Source of the DNA: a virus
Taxonomy: Duplodnaviria; Heunggongvirae; Uroviricota; Caudoviricetes
Virus record (IMG/VR): IMGVR_UViG_2671180892_000010
Direction: 5' to 3' (one strand)
DNA: 38,640 bases
The first letter of the stretch is position 1. Each line of letters begins with the position of its first letter. The position numbers and the translations under genes were made by a program. The notes under the pieces are model-generated. The model was not told where the DNA came from. It saw only the letters and a program-made list of their open reading frames with translations, and searched no databases. Shown one piece after another: positions 3,468-34,626 of the stretch.

Positions 3468-6400
3468 TCAACGAATACTGATGCCGGAAGCGGCTTTTTT
3501 GGTCACAATCACCGTACAGTCGGTGATATTGCCTGCCCCCTGATTGCCTTTCTGGAAAATCTTAAACTCCAGAGTGACGCTACCACCACCACTAGGCATA
3601 TCAATAACTGCACTGTAACTACCGGGAATGGCCCCTTTAGTTTCTCTGGATGCGATTAATACGCCGTTTTTGCGAACTTCAAAACCATAACCCGTGTATC
3701 GCGTGCCTCCTGGGTTATTTCCGCTCCCCGGATCGTCATACGCTATACCGTTAAAAATAATGGGCGGAATAATAATCTGGCGGTCAAAGTTATGATCATC
3801 GCTGATGGTGACTGTAACCGTACCGTTTGGTGTTTCCGTGTTACCCCACGTACCGACTTTTTTCGGGAAGGCTTTTGATACAGCTTTAACGAAATCCCCT
3901 CTGACCTGGGTCGCCTCCAGCATGCCCTTAATCGTACAGTTCTGGTTAATCGTGACATTGTTGAGCGTTCCTGAGTTCGCATTCACACTACCACTGATAT
4001 CCGCATTTTTAGCGGTCAGCTTTCCGTCTGATGTCAGGGAAAATACCGGAGGACTGCCACCGCTGGTAATGGTGGGGGCTGTCAGGCGCTTCAGGAACAC
4101 GTCGTTCATGAATATCTGGTTGCCCTGCGCCACAAACATCGGCGTTTCATTCCCGTTTGCCTGGTCAATAAACGCGATACGGTTAGCGGCAACCAGAAAC
4201 TGGCTCAGCTTGCCTTCCTCCGTGTCCTCCATGCTGAGGCCAATACCCGCGACATAATGTTTGCCGTCTTTGGTCTGCTCAATTTTGACGCCCCACATGG
4301 CATTCCATTTATCGTTAGCGTCCTTCCACTCTTTCGAAAACTCATCCAGTCTGCTGGCGTTATCCTCCGTCAGATCAACTTTTTCCAGCAGCTCTTTACC
4401 GAGATGGGATTCGGTTATCTGGCCTTTGAAAAAATCCAGGTAACCTTCCGCATCATCGCTCGCCCGACCGACGGCTTCCACGAATGCCGATTTGCCAACG
4501 GTGTTCACACTGCGAACGTAAAAATAATAATCATGGCCCGGTTTGATATTGATACTGGCGGCTATCCAGTACAGCGCCGTGCCAAGATAGCGGGCTGTGG
4601 TTTCAACCTGCCTGATATCCGTAATCCGCGTTTCCGAGAACCAGAACTCAAACTGTACCGTCGGATCATAAACCGCAAGATGCGGCGTGGCAGTTATCTG
4701 AAAATAGCCCGGCGTCAGCTCAATCCGCGACGGCGCTGCCGGGGCGGCAATCCGGAACGATACCGACGCCGGATCGCCCTGCTGTCCCCACACATTTACC
4801 GCCCGGACCGTCAGCGTGTAACGCCCCAGCGCCAGTTGCCTGAAGCGGTATGTGGTTTCCGTCGTCCGGGCCGTGCTGACCAGCCGCTCACTGCCGTCGT
4901 CCGCTGTTACGGTCAGACGGAGCAGGAAGCTCACCCCCTTCACCACCTTCGGCGTGTCCCAGCGCGCCAGCACCTGATATTCCCCGCTGTCTGCGGTGAC
5001 TTCGGCAGTCAGGTGCTGCACCGCTGGCGGTGTGACACCATTCACCGTGCCGCTCTGGTCGCCGTCAAAGTGCGCCCCGTTATCCACGATGGCCTCTTTT
5101 TCCGGTACATGCTGCACGGCGGTGATGGCATACGTGCCGTCATCGTTCTCACGAATACTCACGCAGCGGAACAGGCGCTGGCGCAGCGTCGGCAGCTTCA
5201 GCCCCCATACGCTGTATCCGGCAACGCCGTCAGGAACACGGCTCACTTTCACCTTCACGCCGTCGGTGACGGACTGGACCTCCACGCTGACCGGACTCCC
5301 CTGCCCGTCAACCAGGCTTATCAGCGTGGTACCGGAAGATGGCAGCGTGATTTCACGGTCGAGCGTCAGCGTCCGGGTCTGGCTGTTCACCGCCAGCACG
5401 CGCCCGCCGGTGCTGATACCGGCATAGTCATCATCGCAGATTTCAATGACATCGCCCGGTACATGGCGAAGCCCTTCAGCACCCACGCTGAAGTCCACGG
5501 TCTGCGTTTCCAGCAGCTCCGTTTTAATCAGCCACAGCCCGGCTCGGTGTGCCTGCCCCCGGCTGGTACAGCCAAAGGCATCCATCTTCGTGACGTTACG
5601 ACCGTAACGGGCAATGGCCTGCGAGTCCTCCACAAGCTCTGTTGCCGTCTCCCAGCCGTTATCCGGGTCAATCCAGTTCACCTCAACGGCATTATGGCGG
5701 TCTTTCAGGGCGCTGAAGCTGTAGCGGAACGGCGCGCCATCATCCGGCATCACCACATTACTGCGGTTATAGGTCCACACCTTATCCGACGGTCGGTCCT
5801 GCACGAACGTCAGCGTCTGCCCGTTCCATACCGGCATACAGCGCATCGCCGAGCAGAAATCACTGAGCACATCNNNNNNNNNNNNNNNNNNNNNNNNNNN
5901 NCTGGCCGATGACATACAGCGCCCATTTGTCCACATCCGCCGCACCAAGACGTTTCCCCATGCCGTAGCGTGGATGGGTCAGCATATCCCACAGACACCA
6001 GGCCATGTTGTTGCTGTATGCCGGTTTAAACGTTCCGTCCCAGATACCGCTGTATTGCCGCGTCTGCGGGTTATAATTCGACGGCACCTGCAGAATACGC
6101 CCGCGAAGATGATAATTACGGCTCACCTGCTGGCTGCCGAACTGTTCCGAGTCCACCTGCACGCCGACCAGTGCCGTGTTCGGGTAGCACTGTTTCACAT
6201 CGATGATTTCGGTGTATGACGACCAGAGCGTTTTGTTCTGCAGCTGGTCTGTGGTGCTGTCCGGTGTCATCCTGCGCATCCGGATATTGAACGGTCGCGG
6301 CGGCAGGTTATCCACCACCACCGAGGCCAGATACTGCGACGTGGTTTTGCCCTTAATGGTGATGTCTTTTTCTGTCACCCAGCCACCGTTACGTTGTATC

Positions 6401-23069: not shown

Positions 23070-23563
23070 TGTTGCCCCCACAAACAGACTTCACGCTCAA
23101 TCTCACGACGAGTCATCAGGCCTTTCCATTGCTTACCGCCAGCGTATATCCAGCGACGTAGCTGGTCACATGCGCCTTTGATATCGCCCTGGTTTATTTT
23201 GCGAAGAAGCGTCGATGTTCTGAAATTGCCAGCACCCACGTTGTAGACGAACGAGTAAAGAGCGCCGCGCGTTGTTTCCGGTATATCGACTTTGATGTAC
23301 GGGTTAATTTGTCTGGCAACCGTGGCAAGGTCTTTATTCAGGAGGGCTTTGCATTCTGCTTCGGTATACGTTTTACCGAGCATGATGTCTTTTCCGGTGT
23401 GTCCGTGACATACAGTCCATACGCCAACGATATCTTTGTATGGTATGTAGCTGACACCTTCCAGGCCATCGTCACCACTTGGGCCAGTGATTAACACTGA
23501 TGCTATAGCAATTGCTCCGCCACCAATAGCAGCAGCAACTGCTTTTCGTAATGATGGAGGCAT
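23066..23563 (-). CDS. SAR (signal-arrest-release) endolysin, lysozyme family
   Basis: N-terminal Gly/Ala-rich weakly hydrophobic segment [20 protein letters not shown], then a lysozyme E/D/T catalytic region; phage 21 R-like. Confidence 0.85.
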
Positions 23564-23778
23564 TATTCACCTCTCGCAGCCTTGCGCTTATCTTCTTTAA
23601 TCTTGAAATAAAGGTTTGTCAGGTACGTCAGCAGGCCAAATACCAGGCTACCCAGCACACCTATTGCTGCCCACTGTGAGGGCGTGACTTTATCGAGCAG
23701 CTGTAAAAACCAGTAACCGGCACTACCTGCTGAGGTGCCATAGGCGACACCCGTTGTTAACTTATCCATGGATTTCAT
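23563..23778 (-). CDS. pinholin (S21-like) with dual-start motif
   Basis: [71 protein letters not shown], close to phage 21 S; M-K-S-M dual start; GAGGTGGGG RBS. Confidence 0.85.
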
Positions 23779-23815
23779 AACCCCACCTCGCAGATGCGGG
23801 TGCTGTGTAATGGAA

Positions 23816-23839
23816 ATAAAAAGGCCACCTGACGTGGCC
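23816..23839 (-). terminator. intrinsic terminator between the methyltransferase and the holin
   Basis: Minus-strand GGCCAC-GTCAG-GTGGCC followed by TTTTTATTT. Confidence 0.55.
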
Positions 23840-23845
23840 ACCAAA

Positions 23846-24898
23846 TTATTTCCCCACCAGCTCGTTTATCTCTTTCACTGTCTGGTTAAACCGCTCTGAC
23901 TCAAGCTCAACACCTAAGGCCCGACGCCCCAGCGCCATTGCTGCTTTTATTGTGGAACCGGATCCCATAAAAAAATCAGCAACCAGATCACCAGGTCGAC
24001 TACTGGCATTGATTATTTGCCTGAGCATATCCGCCGGTTTCTCACACGGATGTTTACCCGGGTAGAACTGAACGGGTTTATGCATCCAGACATCGGTATA
24101 AGGCACGGAGACTGATACGGAGAAATAGCGCCGGAGAGATTTAAACTCATCCAGCAATTCAGAATATTTGCGATTCAGTGAATCATAAGATGCCACCAGC
24201 TGGTGGTGTGGTTGTTCCAGTTGTTGTTCCTGAAACTTCTCTGCCGCTATACGGGAAAACAGTGCCTGTAACTTCCGATAGTCAGCCTCATTCGGCAACT
24301 GCCACTGACTGGCACCAAACCAGTGGGAAACCATATTTTTCTTACCTGTGGCTTCGGCAATTTGTTTTGCCGTTATACCCAGTTCGGCACGAGCATCCCT
24401 GAAATACGAAATCAGCGGTGCCATTATGTGCTGTTTGAGTTCCCTTTCTTTTGCCGCATAGCCGTCACTTTTGCCGCGATATGGCCCCTGGTAATGTTCA
24501 GCAAACAGAACGCGCTCTGTGGCTGGAAAATATGCACGCAGACTTTCTTTATTACACCCATTCCAACGTCCGGACGGCTTCGCCCAGATGATATGGTTAA
24601 GCACGTTGAAACGTTCACGCATCATGATCTCAATATCAGATGCCAGGCGATGCCCACAGAACAGGTAAAGGCTTCCGGCAGGTTTTAACACCCGCCAGAA
24701 CTGGGCCAGACAGTGGTCCAGCCACTTAAGGTAATCTTCGTCCCCTTTCCACTGATTGTCCCAGCCGTTGGGTTTCACCTTGAAGTACGGCGGATCGGTA
24801 ACAATCAGGTCAATGGAATCATCAGGCAGGGACTGAATAAAATGCAGGCAATCAGCGTTGATTAAATCAACACTGTTTATTTTTACAGTATTTTTCAT
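23846..24898 (-). CDS. orphan DNA methyltransferase, beta class (N6-adenine or N4-cytosine)
   Basis: 350 aa; catalytic motif IV DPPY (IVTDPPYF) near the N-terminus and SAM-binding motif I (FMGSGST) near the C-terminus; no restriction enzyme partner nearby. Confidence 0.85.
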
Positions 24899-25048
24899 GG
24901 ATCAGTAAGCGTAACTCTGGTAGGCTCACTCTGCTTTTGCGCTAAAGCAGTGGGCCGTGGTTCGCTTGTGACCAGTAAGCATGAGCGAATGGCTGGCAGG
25001 TGCTACCAACACCCACCAGCCGCCCATTTTCACAGCAGGAAACCGCCA

Positions 25049-25276
25049 TTACTGGCAGCGTCTGAATTTATTCCCGTACCCGCCGTTATCCTTCGCCAGA
25101 CCCGCCAGAACTAACTGAGTCAGTATTAACTGGCACCGGGCTTCGCTTACTCCGGTAGTTCTCGTCATCATGCGTGGCGTTACCCACTTGTCAGCAGGTA
25201 AGAAATGAAGGACTGCGGCGGCGGTTTCTGTCATATCTTGCTGTTTTAGCATGTCTTTTTCCCTTCTGGTTAACAT
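25049..25276 (-). CDS. hypothetical small protein (possible winged helix)
   Basis: 75 aa ORF; the internal ATG at 25252 has the better RBS (AAGGGA); lies between the lipoprotein moron and the methyltransferase. Confidence 0.4.
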   Translation of the reverse strand: MLTRREKDMLKQQDMTETAAAVLHFLPADKWVTPRMMTRTTGVSEARCQLILTQLVLAGLAKDNGGYGNKFRRCQ

Positions 25277-25373
25277 GACATACCAATAACTCTTGTCTAA
25301 AAAGCCAGCAAGATAAAAAGTCAGTATTCACGACCACCAGCGTGTTTACTGTACTGCACCAAGTTTACGGGTA

Positions 25374-25399
25374 CAAAAAACCCGCTCAGTGGCGGGTTG
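25374..25399 (-). terminator. intrinsic terminator downstream of the lipoprotein gene
   Basis: AAAAAACCCGC-tcagtg-GCGGGTT; the minus-strand transcript gets hairpin plus U-run. Confidence 0.7.
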
Positions 25400-25475
25400 C
25401 TATCACAGCTATATATTTACTTATTATGCCGTTACTAACATTTATCTTCGACATATAATCGAAAACAAGGTTTGC

Positions 25476-25901
25476 TTAAAACTCTGCTTTCATTTTATCC
25501 GGGAATTTTTTATTTGCAGCATAATAACTACCAAGTACATAAGCGTTCATTTGCTGCTCTACATCAACCCGACATGCCGCACTAGAACAAGCTCCACTGA
25601 TAAGCCCAAAAGAACTCCCTTTAGCAGAGAGATCAGCTTTGATTTCCTCTACAGTGTTTTTCCCCATAGCAACTACACACCCTGTCACAATATATCTAGC
25701 TTTCACATCATCCATGCTAAGGATAGTAGTTTTCGCAATTTTGCTGTATCCATCATTTTTATAAACATCCATGGCAAACGCACGGCAATCTGTATAATAC
25801 GGACTTGCTTTAACTTGCGAATACTCAGGTAATTTCATACCTGCACAACCAACTAAACAAAAACCTATCGCTGCTATTAATACCTTTTTCATTACAGTCA
25901 T
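25476..25901 (-). CDS. lipoprotein of unknown function (late-operon moron)
   Basis: MTVMKKVLIAAIGFCLVGCAG...: signal peptide with lipobox LVGC; the gene and its flanks are visibly AT-rich compared with the neighbouring phage genes. Confidence 0.7.
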   Translation of the reverse strand: MTVMKKVLIAAIGFCLVGCAGMKLPEYSQVKASPYYTDCRAFAMDVYKNDGYSKIAKTTILSMDDVKARYIVTGCVVAMGKNTVEEIKADLSAKGSSFGLISGACSSAACRVDVEQQMNAYVLGSYYAANKKFPDKMKAEF

Positions 25902-26050
25902 AACCTAGAAGCATCATTGAAACTAATTTATTAAATAACCATCGAGTTTCTGGAATACAGACGTTAACCATCTCTCCAAAATCTAAAAGATAATAAGAAA
26001 AAATGTTTAACGCACCAATCCATTTCATAGTTTCATGAGACATCAGGCAC

Positions 26051-26078
26051 AAAAAAACCCGCTCAGCGGCGGGTTTTT
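26051..26078 (-). terminator. tR'-like terminator downstream of the Q-dependent late promoter (bidirectional hairpin)
   Basis: AAAAAAACCCGC-tcagcg-GCGGGTTTTT, nearly identical to the hairpin at 25374..25399. Confidence 0.7.
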
Positions 26079-26121
26079 GACATTTACCAACGGTAGACAT
26101 ACAAGGCCCATCGTTGAGAAA

Positions 26122-26150
26122 ATCTTATCCATATTTTTTGAAAAATGCAA
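26122..26150 (-). promoter_or_regulatory. candidate late promoter PR'
   Basis: Minus-strand TTGCAT, 17-nt spacer, TAAGAT, about 35 nt after the Q stop and about 45 nt before the tR'-like hairpin. Confidence 0.35.
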
Positions 26151-26181: not shown

Positions 26182-26934
26182 CTATCTTGTCACTTTTCTC
26201 AATTGCGATTCAGCATACGCTTCTTCCTGCCAGCACTTTGTAACCAGTTTATTAATAACGTCTGCATATCCTTTGTACCACTGATAATCCGTCAGGTCCG
26301 GTACCAGTTTCTGGACATGATGCCGCGCCAGTGTGGTTGGTAAACGGCTAAACCGGTTGCCATTGCAACGCCCACAAATCTTATAAACAGGCACACCATG
26401 AAGCTGGGTTCTTTTTTCATCCAGGACAATACCTTTACCCTTACACCCTCTGCACGCTGTGCTGACTTCTCCCTTACCATGGCAATGCTGACATAGTTCC
26501 TTCACCCACTCTTCCTTGATAACAGATTCCCCGCTTCTGGAGTGTTTCACCACTTCGCGCAATACATTATGAAATCCAGTACCAGCACAATGCTCACAGC
26601 GAGCCTTACTTGCCGCAGACCTGGAATAATCAGCAAAGGCAAAATTCACAAGGTAAGGGATGATCTGTAACCGGGTTTCTTCACTCAATTTGTTCAATGT
26701 CGGGTTATCCAGTGCCATCGCGTAATTGAGCAGACCTTCAATCGCAAATTGAGGATCCTGAACACCAACTTTTGCCAGGAATAAGGCAAACCCAAGCGGT
26801 GCTTTCGACTGCACCATCCCCTGCGCAGCCATCACATCCGTAATCGTTAAACCACCTGAGCCTGTCGCCGGTGCGTCATCGCTCAATTTTGGAGATTTTG
26901 GGGAGTAATATTTTGGTAAGGCTTCAAGGTTCAT
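26182..26934 (-). CDS. Q: late antitermination protein Q
   Basis: MNLEALPKYYSPKSPKL... with Cys-rich zinc-binding motifs (CEHCAGTG, CQHCHGKG, CRGCKGKG, CGRCNG); sits immediately upstream of the late promoter/terminator pair. Confidence 0.8.
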   Translation of the reverse strand: MNLEALPKYYSPKSPKLSDDAPATGSGGLTITDVMAAQGMVQSKAPLGFALFLAKVGVQDPQFAIEGLLNYAMALDNPTLNKLSEETRLQIIPYLVNFAFADYSRSAASKARCEHCAGTGFHNVLREVVKHSRSGESVIKEEWVKELCQHCHGKGEVSTACRGCKGKGIVLDEKRTQLHGVPVYKICGRCNGNRFSRLPTTLARHHVQKLVPDLTDYQWYKGYADVINKLVTKCWQEEAYAESQLRKVTR

Positions 26935-26947
26935 GCTCGTTCTCCAC

Positions 26948-27943
26948 TTACGCCAGTACGCCAATTGCCAGCGCACGATCGATAAAACGAAATATCAGCT
27001 CCAGCTGGGAGCCATACTTCTCTTCAAATGCCACGGTATCCGCATGCAGCTCGTCGTGATGCTTTCTGCACAAAGGCAACACAAAGAGGTCATGCGCTTT
27101 TGTACCCATTCCACCCTGACCGTGGCCTATCAGGTGGTGGGGATCATCAGCAGGCTTTCCACAACATGCACACGGCTGTGTCTTAACCCAGCGCGTGTAC
27201 TTTTCATTAACCCAGCGGCGGCGTTTTGGGCGTAACATAAAAGACTCCGGCGACTCCGGATCCACTTTCAGCGCCAGCACCTTTTTTGCCTTATCCTGGA
27301 TGATGCTGGTGGCAGGAACCGAAGGCACAAGGTCACTTTCCCGGGTGACAGACGGCACAACAGGCTTTGGTAATCTCAGTGCCTTACGGGCTGCACTTTC
27401 CGGTAAGGCATCCGCCAGGTCATTACGAATCAGCCACCAGCACAGTTCCGGCATTGTCACAACGTGACTATCATCAAAACCGAGATCCCGACGCACAACA
27501 GACAACACCCAGCGGGCACAGTTATCCGTTGCCATTGATTCCAGCCGTTCCGTGAACTGATCGCGCAGCTGGTTATCGCAGTGCCAGCACAGACGGATTG
27601 CGCCCGGAGCGTGTCGCATTGTGGTCATGTTCTCGCTGTGCCAGTCGGAATGAGGCCACTGGCAGCCTTTTTCACGACGTAACCAGCTTTCAAGACATTC
27701 CACGCCACCAGCACGACGGATCACTGCCTCATTGCGGAACACGGCCCGAACGGCAGGATCATCCGCCAGCGGTTGTGATGCCGCCGGAACGGCACCACTG
27801 GCGAAAGATGAATAACGTTCCGGCTCAGGCTCCAGCAGAACACGCCCCTGCATAAACAGGGGCATCAGCTCTGAACCTGGCCTGAACAATACGATCCCCA
27901 TACGCGGGGCAATTTCAGGGGTCAGTAGTGCTCTCACGGTCAC
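26948..27943 (-). CDS. DUF968-type protein with HNH-like zinc finger
   Basis: 331 aa; C-terminal ...QPCACCGKPADDPHHLIGHGQGGMGTKAHDLFVLPLCRKHHDELH... Confidence 0.65.
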   Translation of the reverse strand: MTVRALLTPEIAPRMGIVLFRPGSELMPLFMQGRVLLEPEPERYSSFASGAVPAASQPLADDPAVRAVFRNEAVIRRAGGVECLESWLRREKGCQWPHSDWHSENMTTMRHAPGAIRLCWHCDNQLRDQFTERLESMATDNCARWVLSVVRRDLGFDDSHVVTMPELCWWLIRNDLADALPESAARKALRLPKPVVPSVTRESDLVPSVPATSIIQDKAKKVLALKVDPESPESFMLRPKRRRWVNEKYTRWVKTQPCACCGKPADDPHHLIGHGQGGMGTKAHDLFVLPLCRKHHDELHADTVAFEEKYGSQLELIFRFIDRALAIGVLA

Positions 27944-27944
27944 C

Positions 27945-28754
27945 TCAATGAACGGTATCGAGCAGCTTTAACAGCTCAGGGAATCGGGATTCGAAGAAAT
28001 GCGGCTGCGTCTCGCGCGGATTTGCAGGACTGGTGATGTTCTTGCCGAACATGCAGCCTTTCGCCGTCAGCGACCAGAATTTTTTGATGTTGTTAATCGC
28101 GGTACGGCTGTATCGTTCGCGTTGTTCAACGATCCCCAGCTTCACCATCTGGTGATATGCCTGATTAGCCGTCAGGCGGATACCATACTGCTTCAGCAGT
28201 GCACTCAGCGACAGCGTGGGGCGACTTGAGCCATCAGGCGCGTCAGCAGGAGCATCAATGGCATAGCGCGGTGCCAGATTCGGTAAGCCAACAGCCTCCT
28301 GAAGCTTCTGACAGGCTCCAAGCACTGATGAGTTAGACAGATTTAATTCCCGGCGCATAAAGTCCAGCAGGATCACGCCAGCCTGCATCTTGTCAGCAGC
28401 CTGTCCGGATAATTTTTCCGGTGCGCTGGTTACCATGTCGAAAGTACGGATCACCTTCAGATGGAATGACGGGCTGATCCACATTGCATAGGCATACACC
28501 AGTTCTTTGCAGACATACGTCCCCTGGTTATTTCCGCCATTAATGACGCTAACTGGTTGATTTTGTTCCAGAGGCGGAATTCCACCCTCGGTGAAAAGTT
28601 GTTCAATCAATTCACAGGTTTGCTTATTGGAGAGCCAGTATTTCGGGCGGTTTTTTTGTTCTCCCCCGGCTGCCCTGTGCAGATCGTTCAGGCTGTAACG
28701 CCCATAAGCATCACGACGAACTTCAATACCATCAATGACCATCAGATTATTCAT
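27945..28754 (-). CDS. KilA-N domain protein
   Basis: MNNLMVIDGIEVRRDAYGRYSLNDLHRAAGGEQKNRPKYWLSNKQTCELIEQL..., typical KilA-N N-terminus. Confidence 0.7.
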   Translation of the reverse strand: MNNLMVIDGIEVRRDAYGRYSLNDLHRAAGGEQKNRPKYWLSNKQTCELIEQLFTEGGIPPLEQNQPVSVINGGNNQGTYVCKELVYAYAMWISPSFHLKVIRTFDMVTSAPEKLSGQAADKMQAGVILLDFMRRELNLSNSSVLGACQKLQEAVGLPNLAPRYAIDAPADAPDGSSRPTLSLSALLKQYGIRLTANQAYHQMVKLGIVEQRERYSRTAINNIKKFWSLTAKGCMFGKNITSPANPRETQPHFFESRFPELLKLLDTVH

Positions 28755-28773
28755 ACTTCGTTTCTCCTCTTGA

Positions 28774-29163
28774 TCAGGCGGCTGCACCCGCCGGTTTCTC
28801 ATACTTACTGATAGTGATCTCGACCTTCCCTTTCTGGATAACCGGTCCCCACTCCACCAGCATTCTTTTCACCTGGCTGTCGTCTTCCCACACCCCCGCG
28901 TGGGTCAGGGCGTCAAACAGCGCCTTGTTATAGTTGTCCAGATCGCGGATCCGGTTATCCGGAGGAAACAACACGATCTCCACTGAAGCAGGTGCCGACG
29001 TTGGTTTTGGCAGACGACGTAACTGCTCAACTATTGCTGCGCACGCCGCGCTCTGGAATTTGCGCCCCGCCGCGCTTATCAGGCTTTTACCAGCAAACGC
29101 CCCTTTATTAGGGTGTCGCCAGTACGTATTCACGCTGGGCGGGAAAGGTAGGATCAGTTTCAT
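28774..29163 (-). CDS. rusA: Holliday junction resolvase RusA
   Basis: 129 aa, MKLILPFPPSVNTYWRHPNKG... ...DLDNYNKALFDALTHAGVWEDDSQV..., RusA family. Confidence 0.88.
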   Translation of the reverse strand: MKLILPFPPSVNTYWRHPNKGAFAGKSLISAAGRKFQSAACAAIVEQLRRLPKPTSAPASVEIVLFPPDNRIRDLDNYNKALFDALTHAGVWEDDSQVKRMLVEWGPVIQKGKVEITISKYEKPAGAAA

Positions 29164-33401: not shown

Positions 33402-34076
33402 ATGAAAACAGTCCATGACATCCGGCGGTCTAACGCCAGAAAACTGAGAGATGGTGTTGGCGGGAATTCTTCCTTTGCCACCATGATTGATCGCGAGCCA
33501 ACCCAGACCAGCAGGTTTATGGGAGATGGTGCTACTAAAAATATCGGTGACAGCATGGCACGGCACATCGAAAAATGTTTCGACCTGCCTGTCGGATGGC
33601 TTGATCAAGAACACCAGACAACAAACATCACAAAAAAACCTGATGTTTCAATTACTAACAAACAAATAACGTTAGTCCCTGTCATATCATGGGTACAGGC
33701 CGGAGCATGGAAAGAAGTTGGCTATTCTGAGGTTGATTTGAGCACAGCAGAAACTTATCCCTGCCCTGTACCCTGTGGCGAAATGACTTATATCTTGCGG
33801 GTGATTGGTGATTCAATGATTGATGAGTACCGCCCGGGAGACATGATTTTTGTAGATCCTGAAGTCCCTGCCTGCCACGGTGACGACGTTATTGCATTGA
33901 TGCACGATACAGGCGAAACCACCTTTAAGCGGTTGATAGAAGATGGAACACAGCGTTACCTCAAAGCATTAAACCCAAACTGGCCTGAACCTTACATTAA
34001 GATCAACGGTAATTGCTCTATAATTGGCACAGTAATTTTCTCAGGAAAACCAAGAAGATACAAAATAAAGGCCTAA
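33402..34076 (+). CDS. cI: CI-like prophage repressor (helix-turn-helix plus S24 LexA-like peptidase domain)
   Basis: 224 aa; C-terminal ...LRVIGDSMIDEYRPGDMIFVDPEVP... autocleavage domain; divergent from cro. Confidence 0.88.
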   Translation: MKTVHDIRRSNARKLRDGVGGNSSFATMIDREPTQTSRFMGDGATKNIGDSMARHIEKCFDLPVGWLDQEHQTTNITKKPDVSITNKQITLVPVISWVQAGAWKEVGYSEVDLSTAETYPCPVPCGEMTYILRVIGDSMIDEYRPGDMIFVDPEVPACHGDDVIALMHDTGETTFKRLIEDGTQRYLKALNPNWPEPYIKINGNCSIIGTVIFSGKPRRYKIKA

Positions 34077-34147: not shown

Positions 34148-34577
34148 TAAAAGAAACATGTCACAGGCAAGATTAAACAAAATTTGGTTGTAACACGGCG
34201 TATGGCACATGCGTCGTTAGCGGTCTGGGGACGTTAAAGGGGACAATCCACTCCTTGCTCGGGCAAACAAACCAGGTAGCCGGAATGTGCAAGTCAATGA
34301 TGATGCTGATAAGACGCCTAACCAGCGTGGCGATCCGGTTTGACGCCTGGGAAGAGACCAGGGTGCAACGATGAGGGCATTTATGGAGCCGCGACAAAGT
34401 GTGGTGCCGTAACTGGCTAAGTGCTCTCAGCGTTGTGGTGAATGCGCAGGCTGATGCGCGAAAGACATTGCAGCTAATGCGGAAAAGAGCTGTTCGGCGG
34501 GGCAATTAAACGCCCGAGAGAGTCTGAAATAACCGCAAGCCGGAGATCAGCACCGGTCACCACAACAGCCACTGCTT

Positions 34578-34626
34578 TGGCGGTACCAGTTTGTACACTT
34601 GCTTCCGGCTGGTACCGCTCTTTTTA
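34578..34626 (+). terminator. candidate intrinsic terminator (tL-like) upstream of the early-left genes
   Basis: 10-bp stem GCGGTACCAG / CTGGTACCGC with a 19-nt loop, followed by TCTTTTT. Confidence 0.5.

Follow-up and report, generated by a model that had tools for sequence, protein, structure and literature searches.

Morons were defined in lambdoid phages as extra DNA of distinct composition that carries its own promoter and terminator (Juhala/Hendrix definition; HK97 gene 15; PMC3594210). Here, we analyze a lipoprotein gene in IMG/VR record IMGVR_UViG_2671180892_000010, a 38,640-nucleotide (nt) stretch of DNA (the window) that carries the late genes of a lambda-like E. coli prophage on its minus strand. 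The gene lies in the slot between the late antiterminator gene Q and the holin gene, where the first-pass annotation of the sequence had placed it (Q at 26182–26976, P21-type holin at 23563–23844), and it is enclosed by two near-identical terminators, of which the upstream one is tR', the terminator of the late operon. Like HK97 gene 15, this cassette is extra DNA of divergent GC content with a promoter-like site and a terminator inside a conserved operon, and its predicted product is a small envelope protein. It differs from those morons in its position, which is at tR' and not in the tail operon, and in its terminator, which nearly duplicates the tR' of the operon and so gives the cassette direct-repeat flanks. 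As read from its sequence, the cassette is extra DNA of distinct composition closed by a terminator, and its promoter is predicted. We put the probability at roughly 0.7 that it is a moron, added to a lambda-like prophage immediately behind tR' as an independent transcription unit.

In lambdoid phages, module joints are known to be marked by conserved boundary or linker sequences, and Red/RecT-type recombination on short or diverged homology is likewise established. The terminators described here resemble such linkers in that a short shared sequence marks module joints and homology breakpoints fall at its edges. Unlike other linkers, this one is a functional intrinsic terminator and occurs twice, in direct orientation, around one gene. 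Specific to this locus is the use of the late terminator as the joint, in two copies around a single gene. The closest known occupants of the slot are stx and the other cargo carried between Q and S in Shiga toxin (Stx) phages, with which the cassette shares both the position and the expected Q read-through for late expression. It physically co-occurs with stx2c and stx2k, but its gene encodes a non-toxin, precedes the tRNA and stx genes and is followed by a terminator of its own.

The elements on which the argument depends are listed below; promoter ranks are among all site-spacer combinations in the window in a position-weight scan for sigma-70-like sites.

26182–26976, minus strand: late-gene antiterminator Q of the Q21/P22 gp23 type (Pfam PF03589 Antiterm, E = 1e-53).
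26122–26150, minus strand: pR'-like late promoter, TTGCAT-17-TAAGAT (position-weight matrix score 9.7, top 36 in the window).
26049–26078, minus strand: upstream terminator copy, tR'; one member of the repeat, AAAAACCCGC-CGCUGA-GCGGGUUUUU followed by UU (predicted fold −13.9 kcal/mol).
25990–26018, minus strand: candidate cassette promoter, TTGGTG-17-TATTAT (position-weight matrix score 11.1, top 13 in the window).
25476–25901, minus strand: lipoprotein gene of 141 aa, an open reading frame (ORF) with the motif GFCLVGC (phrog_4748, E = 7.5e-91).
25373–25398, minus strand: downstream terminator copy; the other member of the repeat, AACCCGC-CACUGA-GCGGGUU followed by UUUUGU (predicted fold −11.2 kcal/mol).
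25399–26075, no strand: presence/absence unit of 677 bp, made up of the cassette body and one terminator copy.

A repeat search showed that the two terminator copies share a 24-nt direct repeat (25375–25398 and 26052–26075), identical at 23 of 24 positions (96%) and spaced 677 nt from start to start. Its 20-nt core occurs at only these two sites in the window and in 0 of 100 shuffles, with three mismatches allowed, so the pair is real and far beyond chance. Folded on the minus strand, the downstream and upstream copies are predicted to form GC-rich stems of 7 and 10 bp (−11.2 and −13.9 kcal/mol), respectively, and each stem is followed by a U-run of six or seven residues that lies partly inside it, as expected of an intrinsic terminator. 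The pair of near-identical hairpins reported in the first-pass annotation is confirmed; the strings that it gave are present, but at 25373–25398 and 26049–26075, 1–3 nt from where it had put them. A generic terminator scan of the window reported the downstream copy only. Both copies are marked as terminators in the record of phage Ayreon, and the SfV record marks the single copy that remains in that phage as a rho-independent terminator. The downstream copy begins 78 nt past the lipoprotein stop codon and is predicted to serve as the gene's own terminator. Phages with an empty site have no terminator other than their single copy between pR' and the next gene; this, together with the SfV annotation, identifies the upstream copy as tR' of the late operon. 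Searches of Rfam with the region gave sub-threshold, leader-like matches only, which are due to the terminator.

The 653 bp between the terminator copies have a GC content of 36.0%, against 51.9% for the window, and are the lowest-GC stretch of that size anywhere in it, which bears out the earlier remark that the gene and its flanks are AT rich. GC content at third codon positions (GC3) is 0.28 in the lipoprotein gene and 0.47–0.56 in its neighbors.

A 1.4-kb region around the cassette is 98% identical in mEp460, Ayreon, and fifteen Stx2c-converting phages. Phages vB_EcoM-720R4 and SfV have the same neighboring genes but only one terminator and lack exactly 677 bp at this site, which marks the cassette as extra DNA. 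The cassette is present in 215 (∼4%) of 5,426 complete E. coli genomes, always on the chromosome and always at full length, and 186 of the genomes have a contiguous empty junction. The empty junction was scored with a 120-nt probe, which separates filled from empty sites; a 301-nt query merged both classes. With such counts, the lipoprotein gene is neither core nor rare, and its presence or absence is a balanced polymorphism. The first-pass annotation had anticipated relatives with an empty site and a single terminator, and it had named a ubiquitous core gene with no empty variants as the outcome that would speak against it; empty sites exist. Clustering of 13 filled and 26 empty alleles by 800 nt of their flanks did not separate the classes, which interleaved. 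Between a filled allele and its closest empty counterpart there are only 2–3 differences, compared with a median pairwise difference of 31.

Several junctions place the exchange at the terminator. One empty allele (L034) consists of the window's upstream flank with the loop G and GTGCC tail of the upstream copy, joined to CGTAAACTTGG of the downstream copy. Recombination between the two copies would be expected to yield just such a chimera, and L034 is its footprint. The junction in 720R4 is the product of the same copy-to-copy event in an Ayreon-type allele. SfV-type empty sites keep about 12 nt of the cassette leader and, for this reason, are not simple products of repeat recombination. Many hits of the junction probe in E. 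coli genomes span just one half of it and break off at the terminator edges. The exact 24-mer AACCCGCCRCTGAGCGGGTTTTTT is found in at least 120 IMG/VR contigs (loci L016–L135) and, among the matches listed (141 sites), is joined to at least 37 upstream and at least 35 downstream flank types. Where one contig among these matches contains two copies, they are always 676–677 bp apart, which is this cassette, and the same spacing of 676–677 bp was seen in every two-copy locus that was fetched. Judged by these flanks, the terminator is, in other phages, a junction between dozens of unrelated modules.

These comparisons indicate how the cassette comes and goes. The terminator copies, with ∼24–35 nt shared, act as homology arms; recombination from copy to copy removes exactly 677 bp and leaves a single, sometimes chimeric terminator, and recombination with a cassette-bearing phage can reinstall the cassette. 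The first-pass annotation had proposed acquisition by recombination at tR'. Recombination at this site is supported by the breakpoints at the terminator edges and by the chimeric L034 allele; acquisition is one possible direction of it. Comparison with relatives shows that the cassette is extra DNA of foreign composition, bounded by two tR' copies and gained or lost as a 677-bp block. A more ambitious proposal is that the terminator pair is a working cassette system, in which a widespread intrinsic terminator provides portable arms and single cargo genes, here for a new class of envelope lipoprotein (for example, one for exclusion or receptor masking), are moved into and out of the late operon by phage recombinases without harm to Q regulation. 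We consider this unlikely. If true, it would be relevant to Stx2c and Stx2k phages, where the cassette lies between Q and the toxin genes.

The arrangement has a counterpart in Salmonella. A prophage homolog with 76% protein identity retains the order terminator (with the same loop), leader, gene, terminator, and methylase remnant, and it sits behind a different, lambda-type Q. In this copy (L009), the terminator at 3822–3843 has the same loop despite saturated synonymous divergence in the adjacent gene (dS ∼1.8 between the window gene and the Salmonella gene), and only the 3' end of the methylase gene is kept. A shared layout at this divergence means that the arrangement is old, and the near-identity of the terminators therefore reflects selection, repeated recombination, or both. 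It also follows from the age of the cassette that many empty sites may be losses, as opposed to a recent gain in the window's lineage. More distant homologs are found in the early region of Rac-like Salmonella prophages, where they adjoin a VapBC pair, and on Klebsiella and Buttiauxella phage-plasmids. The gene has thus changed both its position and the type of phage that carries it, as is usual for morons. On the phage-plasmids, the homolog is directly followed by a second small lipoprotein gene (99 aa; L008 3431–3730 and L013 4446–4745) that gave no Pfam match; the two products may act as a pair.

The alternative that survives best is that the cassette is ancestral to the Q–tR' module, that every empty site is a secondary deletion, and that the repeats record a deletion hazard and not an insertion. 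We regard this as a serious possibility, with odds somewhat short of even. The Salmonella prophage, with the same layout behind a different Q type at a dS of ∼1.8, speaks for such a history, and so do the empty junctions: a deletion between the window's copies would give precisely the chimera seen in L034, and the 720R4 junction corresponds to deletion from an Ayreon-type allele. Against it, the strong contrast in GC content (36% versus 52%) and GC3 of 0.28 indicate that the cassette was at one time foreign to the DNA around it, and the gene is evidently mobile, since other phage types carry homologs in unrelated places. Moreover, the SfV-type empty sites cannot be derived simply from recombination between the repeats, and other cargo fills the same slot in relatives.

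The moron reading also predicts that the gene can be transcribed independently of Q. Two sites stand out in the promoter scan between Q and the lipoprotein gene, the pR'-like site and the candidate cassette promoter. The pR'-like site is located directly past the Q stop codon, where pR' is expected, and its sequence is conserved in filled and empty relatives; from this position after Q, we infer that TTGCAT-17-TAAGAT functions as pR'. A leader of ∼65 nt would span the distance from the pR'-like site to the upstream terminator copy. The candidate cassette promoter is the best-scoring site in the region and lies downstream of tR', ∼90 nt before the lipoprotein start codon. In the Salmonella copy (L009), the best site (TTGGTA-18-TATCAT at 3880) aligns with it, such that a promoter-like site recurs there despite saturation of synonymous sites. 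A promoter common to all genomic contexts of the lipoprotein gene family was sought and was not found. The predicted promoter, gene, and terminator fit the classic moron layout. In a lysogen, transcripts from pR' would end at tR', and the cassette promoter would drive an mRNA of ∼610 nt ending at the downstream copy, which would bar read-through from that promoter into the methylase and lysis genes. With the cassette transcript stopped at this point, the lysis genes would be shielded from the cassette promoter. After induction, Q-modified RNA polymerase would pass both terminators, and the lipoprotein would also be made in bulk late in infection.

It is possible, but in our view improbable, that the gene is purely a late lytic one without a role in the lysogen, transcribed only from pR' by Q-modified polymerase, and that its product acts at the burst, for instance by masking receptors on debris, which would spare progeny, or by aiding envelope disruption. 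This explanation fits a gene of the late operon that is placed after Q and ahead of the lysis genes; stx, which occupies the slot in Stx phages, relies on Q read-through, and Llp of T5 is an established precedent for receptor masking that protects progeny. A gene of this kind does not account for a high-scoring promoter-like site downstream of tR' that recurs in the Salmonella copy, nor for a dedicated terminator downstream of the lipoprotein gene. Homologs in Rac-like early regions and on phage-plasmids lie away from lysis genes, and about half of the otherwise near-identical phages do without the cassette. The late expression envisaged in the first-pass annotation is consistent with the slot between Q and the lysis genes; because the gene has its own promoter-like site, also found in the Salmonella copy, expression is probably not confined to the late phase.

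The lipoprotein itself is conserved. The 141-aa ORF with an LVGC lipobox noted earlier is present at 25476–25901 on the minus strand; its product begins with MTVMKK, followed by a hydrophobic core, the lipobox LVGC19, and Ala at +2, and so has the signal peptide and lipobox of a lipoprotein. The G+LPP lipoprotein pattern matches, whereas the strict PROSITE-style pattern fails in this allele only, which has Cys at −4, and matches the homologs. In an alignment of eight homologs, G18, C19, C39, C75, C105, and C110 are invariant. Across genera, identity over the full length of the protein is 54–76%, and the ratio of nonsynonymous to synonymous divergence (dN/dS) is 0.08–0.2 against five homologs, with dS saturated, which argues for a real gene under purifying selection. 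An AF2 (AlphaFold) model shows a mostly helical domain (mean predicted local distance difference test score 79).

Database searches place the protein in a family of its own. PHROGs assigns it to phrog_4748 (E = 7.5e-91), annotated as "unknown function." No Pfam family was matched at E values up to 0.01, and no membership of the Bor/Iss family was found; Pfam presumably includes a model for lambda Bor. Searches of NCBIfam gave no match and those of PADLOC-DB (models of anti-phage defense) gave 0 families, while a sequence search of the PDB returned chance-level matches only and a fold search of BFVD nothing significant. When 1.84 billion representative proteins were scanned in full with a HMMER profile, eight were matched, all of them close family members, and a widened profile extended these to 36 clusters, all "hypothetical" and all from Enterobacterales. 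A literature search with the RefSeq protein accession of the lipoprotein found nothing. The protein therefore belongs to an orphan family that is confined to Enterobacterales and is without an informative sequence or fold match. The first-pass annotation had suggested superinfection exclusion or outer-membrane virulence and had proposed homology and structure searches; these yielded no match that supports or excludes either role.

Ala at +2 follows the rule for Lol-dependent sorting to the outer membrane. The lipoprotein would be exported, lipidated at Cys19, and sorted to the outer membrane on account of Ala +2, and its helical domain of ∼120 residues, with four conserved cysteines, would sit in the oxidizing periplasm or at the cell surface. 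As to what it does there, our tentative preference, held at well below even odds, is superinfection exclusion or receptor masking. The preference is by analogy with Cor, Llp, and HK97 gp15 and with the benefit that such a protein could bring both in the lysogen and at burst. Cor (phi80/N15/HK022) and Llp (T5) are likewise small phage lipoproteins at the outer membrane and provide the favored functional model. They differ from the cassette protein in that no homology to them was detected, in that the cassette protein is larger (∼122 mature residues) and cysteine rich, and in that it shows no link to a particular type of tail or receptor. The lipoprotein might alter the envelope to the benefit of the lysogen, chiefly by blocking other phages, although we hold this with low confidence. 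Late expression might also keep released progeny from sticking to debris.

An outer-membrane lipoprotein could instead be a virulence factor of the Bor/Iss kind, expressed in the lysogen to raise serum or stress resistance and not directed against phages. Lambda bor is indeed a prophage lipoprotein cargo gene beside the lysis cassette, and Stx2c and Stx2k phages, with many human and animal isolates, carry the cassette. The similarity to bor has limits: bor is found beyond Rz and is encoded on the opposite strand, the cassette gene precedes holin and is encoded on the late strand, and no sequence relationship is seen. The absence of a Pfam match weighs against this role, given that we take Pfam to include a lambda Bor model, as do assignment to a PHROG family of unknown function and a predicted fold that is a helical bundle (considered without comparison to the Bor fold). 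We regard the role as doubtful. A chance ORF in an AT-rich spacer, with the duplicated terminator as the only real feature, would explain why the protein is "hypothetical" in all databases and lacks a domain, but this is refuted by 54–76% identity over the full length across genera, an invariant lipobox and four cysteines, and dN/dS of 0.08–0.2 at saturated dS.

The locus offers a countable case of cargo gain and loss at a defined lambdoid joint, with a 677-bp indel, similar frequencies of the two states, and one footprint allele. It also draws attention to a conserved, uncharacterized lipoprotein that Stx2c and Stx2k phages carry, as do ∼4% of the complete E. coli genomes. Should the protein prove to block phages or change the envelope, the few known phage lipoprotein conversion factors would gain a family. 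Morons, module boundaries, and the Q-to-S cargo slot are already well established, and current understanding is not overturned. Given that mEp460, Ayreon, and the Stx2c phages had been sequenced and that the Ayreon terminators had been annotated, the novelty is limited to the protein family and the quantified polymorphism. This is a clear but ordinary example of lambdoid cargo exchange at short shared sequences.

The remaining genes around the slot are as follows, in transcription order.

27945–28802, minus strand: KilA-N protein, upstream of the DUF968/HNH gene.
26948–27943, minus strand: DUF968/HNH protein, between the KilA-N gene and Q.
25049–25276, minus strand: orf75, an ORF of 75 aa (phrog_331).
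23846–24898, minus strand: N6/N4 DNA methylase, between orf75 and holin.
23563–23844, minus strand: P21-type holin, followed by endolysin and Rz.

Q is the upstream neighbor and sets the edge of the cassette slot; the records of Ayreon, SfV, and 720R4 label its homolog "antitermination protein Q." On the other side, orf75 and the methylase gene (together 23846–25276, minus strand) are two non-lysis genes that separate the cassette from holin. The orf75 homolog is called a "TrmB family transcriptional regulator" in the record of an Stx2k phage. A 91-aa ORF (25825–26100, minus strand; phrog_37626) was considered as a further gene. Its frame runs across the tR' hairpin and overlaps the beginning of the lipoprotein gene, and it is not preserved in the leader of the Salmonella copy; for these two reasons it was treated as spurious. 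The records of several phages include it as a short hypothetical protein; it is probably a spurious call that has spread through databases.

The contents of the slot vary among relatives. In VE-T2 (E. coli; L007 3199–3729), the region between Q and orf75 holds a gene for a 176-aa protein, followed by a different downstream terminator; this protein had no match in Pfam or PADLOC. In PhiR40_1 (L004 3624–4070), the slot holds a 148-aa lipoprotein gene on the opposite strand (MNKMTVLLLSATIISGC...) behind a different type of Q. The cassette and both terminator copies are found between Q and the tRNA/stx2 genes in the Stx2c phage LC727877 (L014 4335–9077) and in phiSTEC1575-Stx2k (L006 1376–5715). 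With the cassette in this position, two terminators separate pR' from the toxin genes.

A small RNA modulated by ArcA, sRNA-17, has been described from E. coli K1 RS218 (PMC7719688). A link between the cassette and this ArcA-regulated RNA of mEp460-like prophages was considered and rejected, as its primers and probe map to approximately 34493–34618, 8.5 kb away. In the window, sRNA-17 maps to 34493–34618 on the minus strand, within the immunity region and ∼420 bp downstream of the stop codon of a CI/LexA-like repressor gene (33402–34076). The Northern probe for sRNA-17 has one mismatch in the window, and the 5' end of the RNA is exact.
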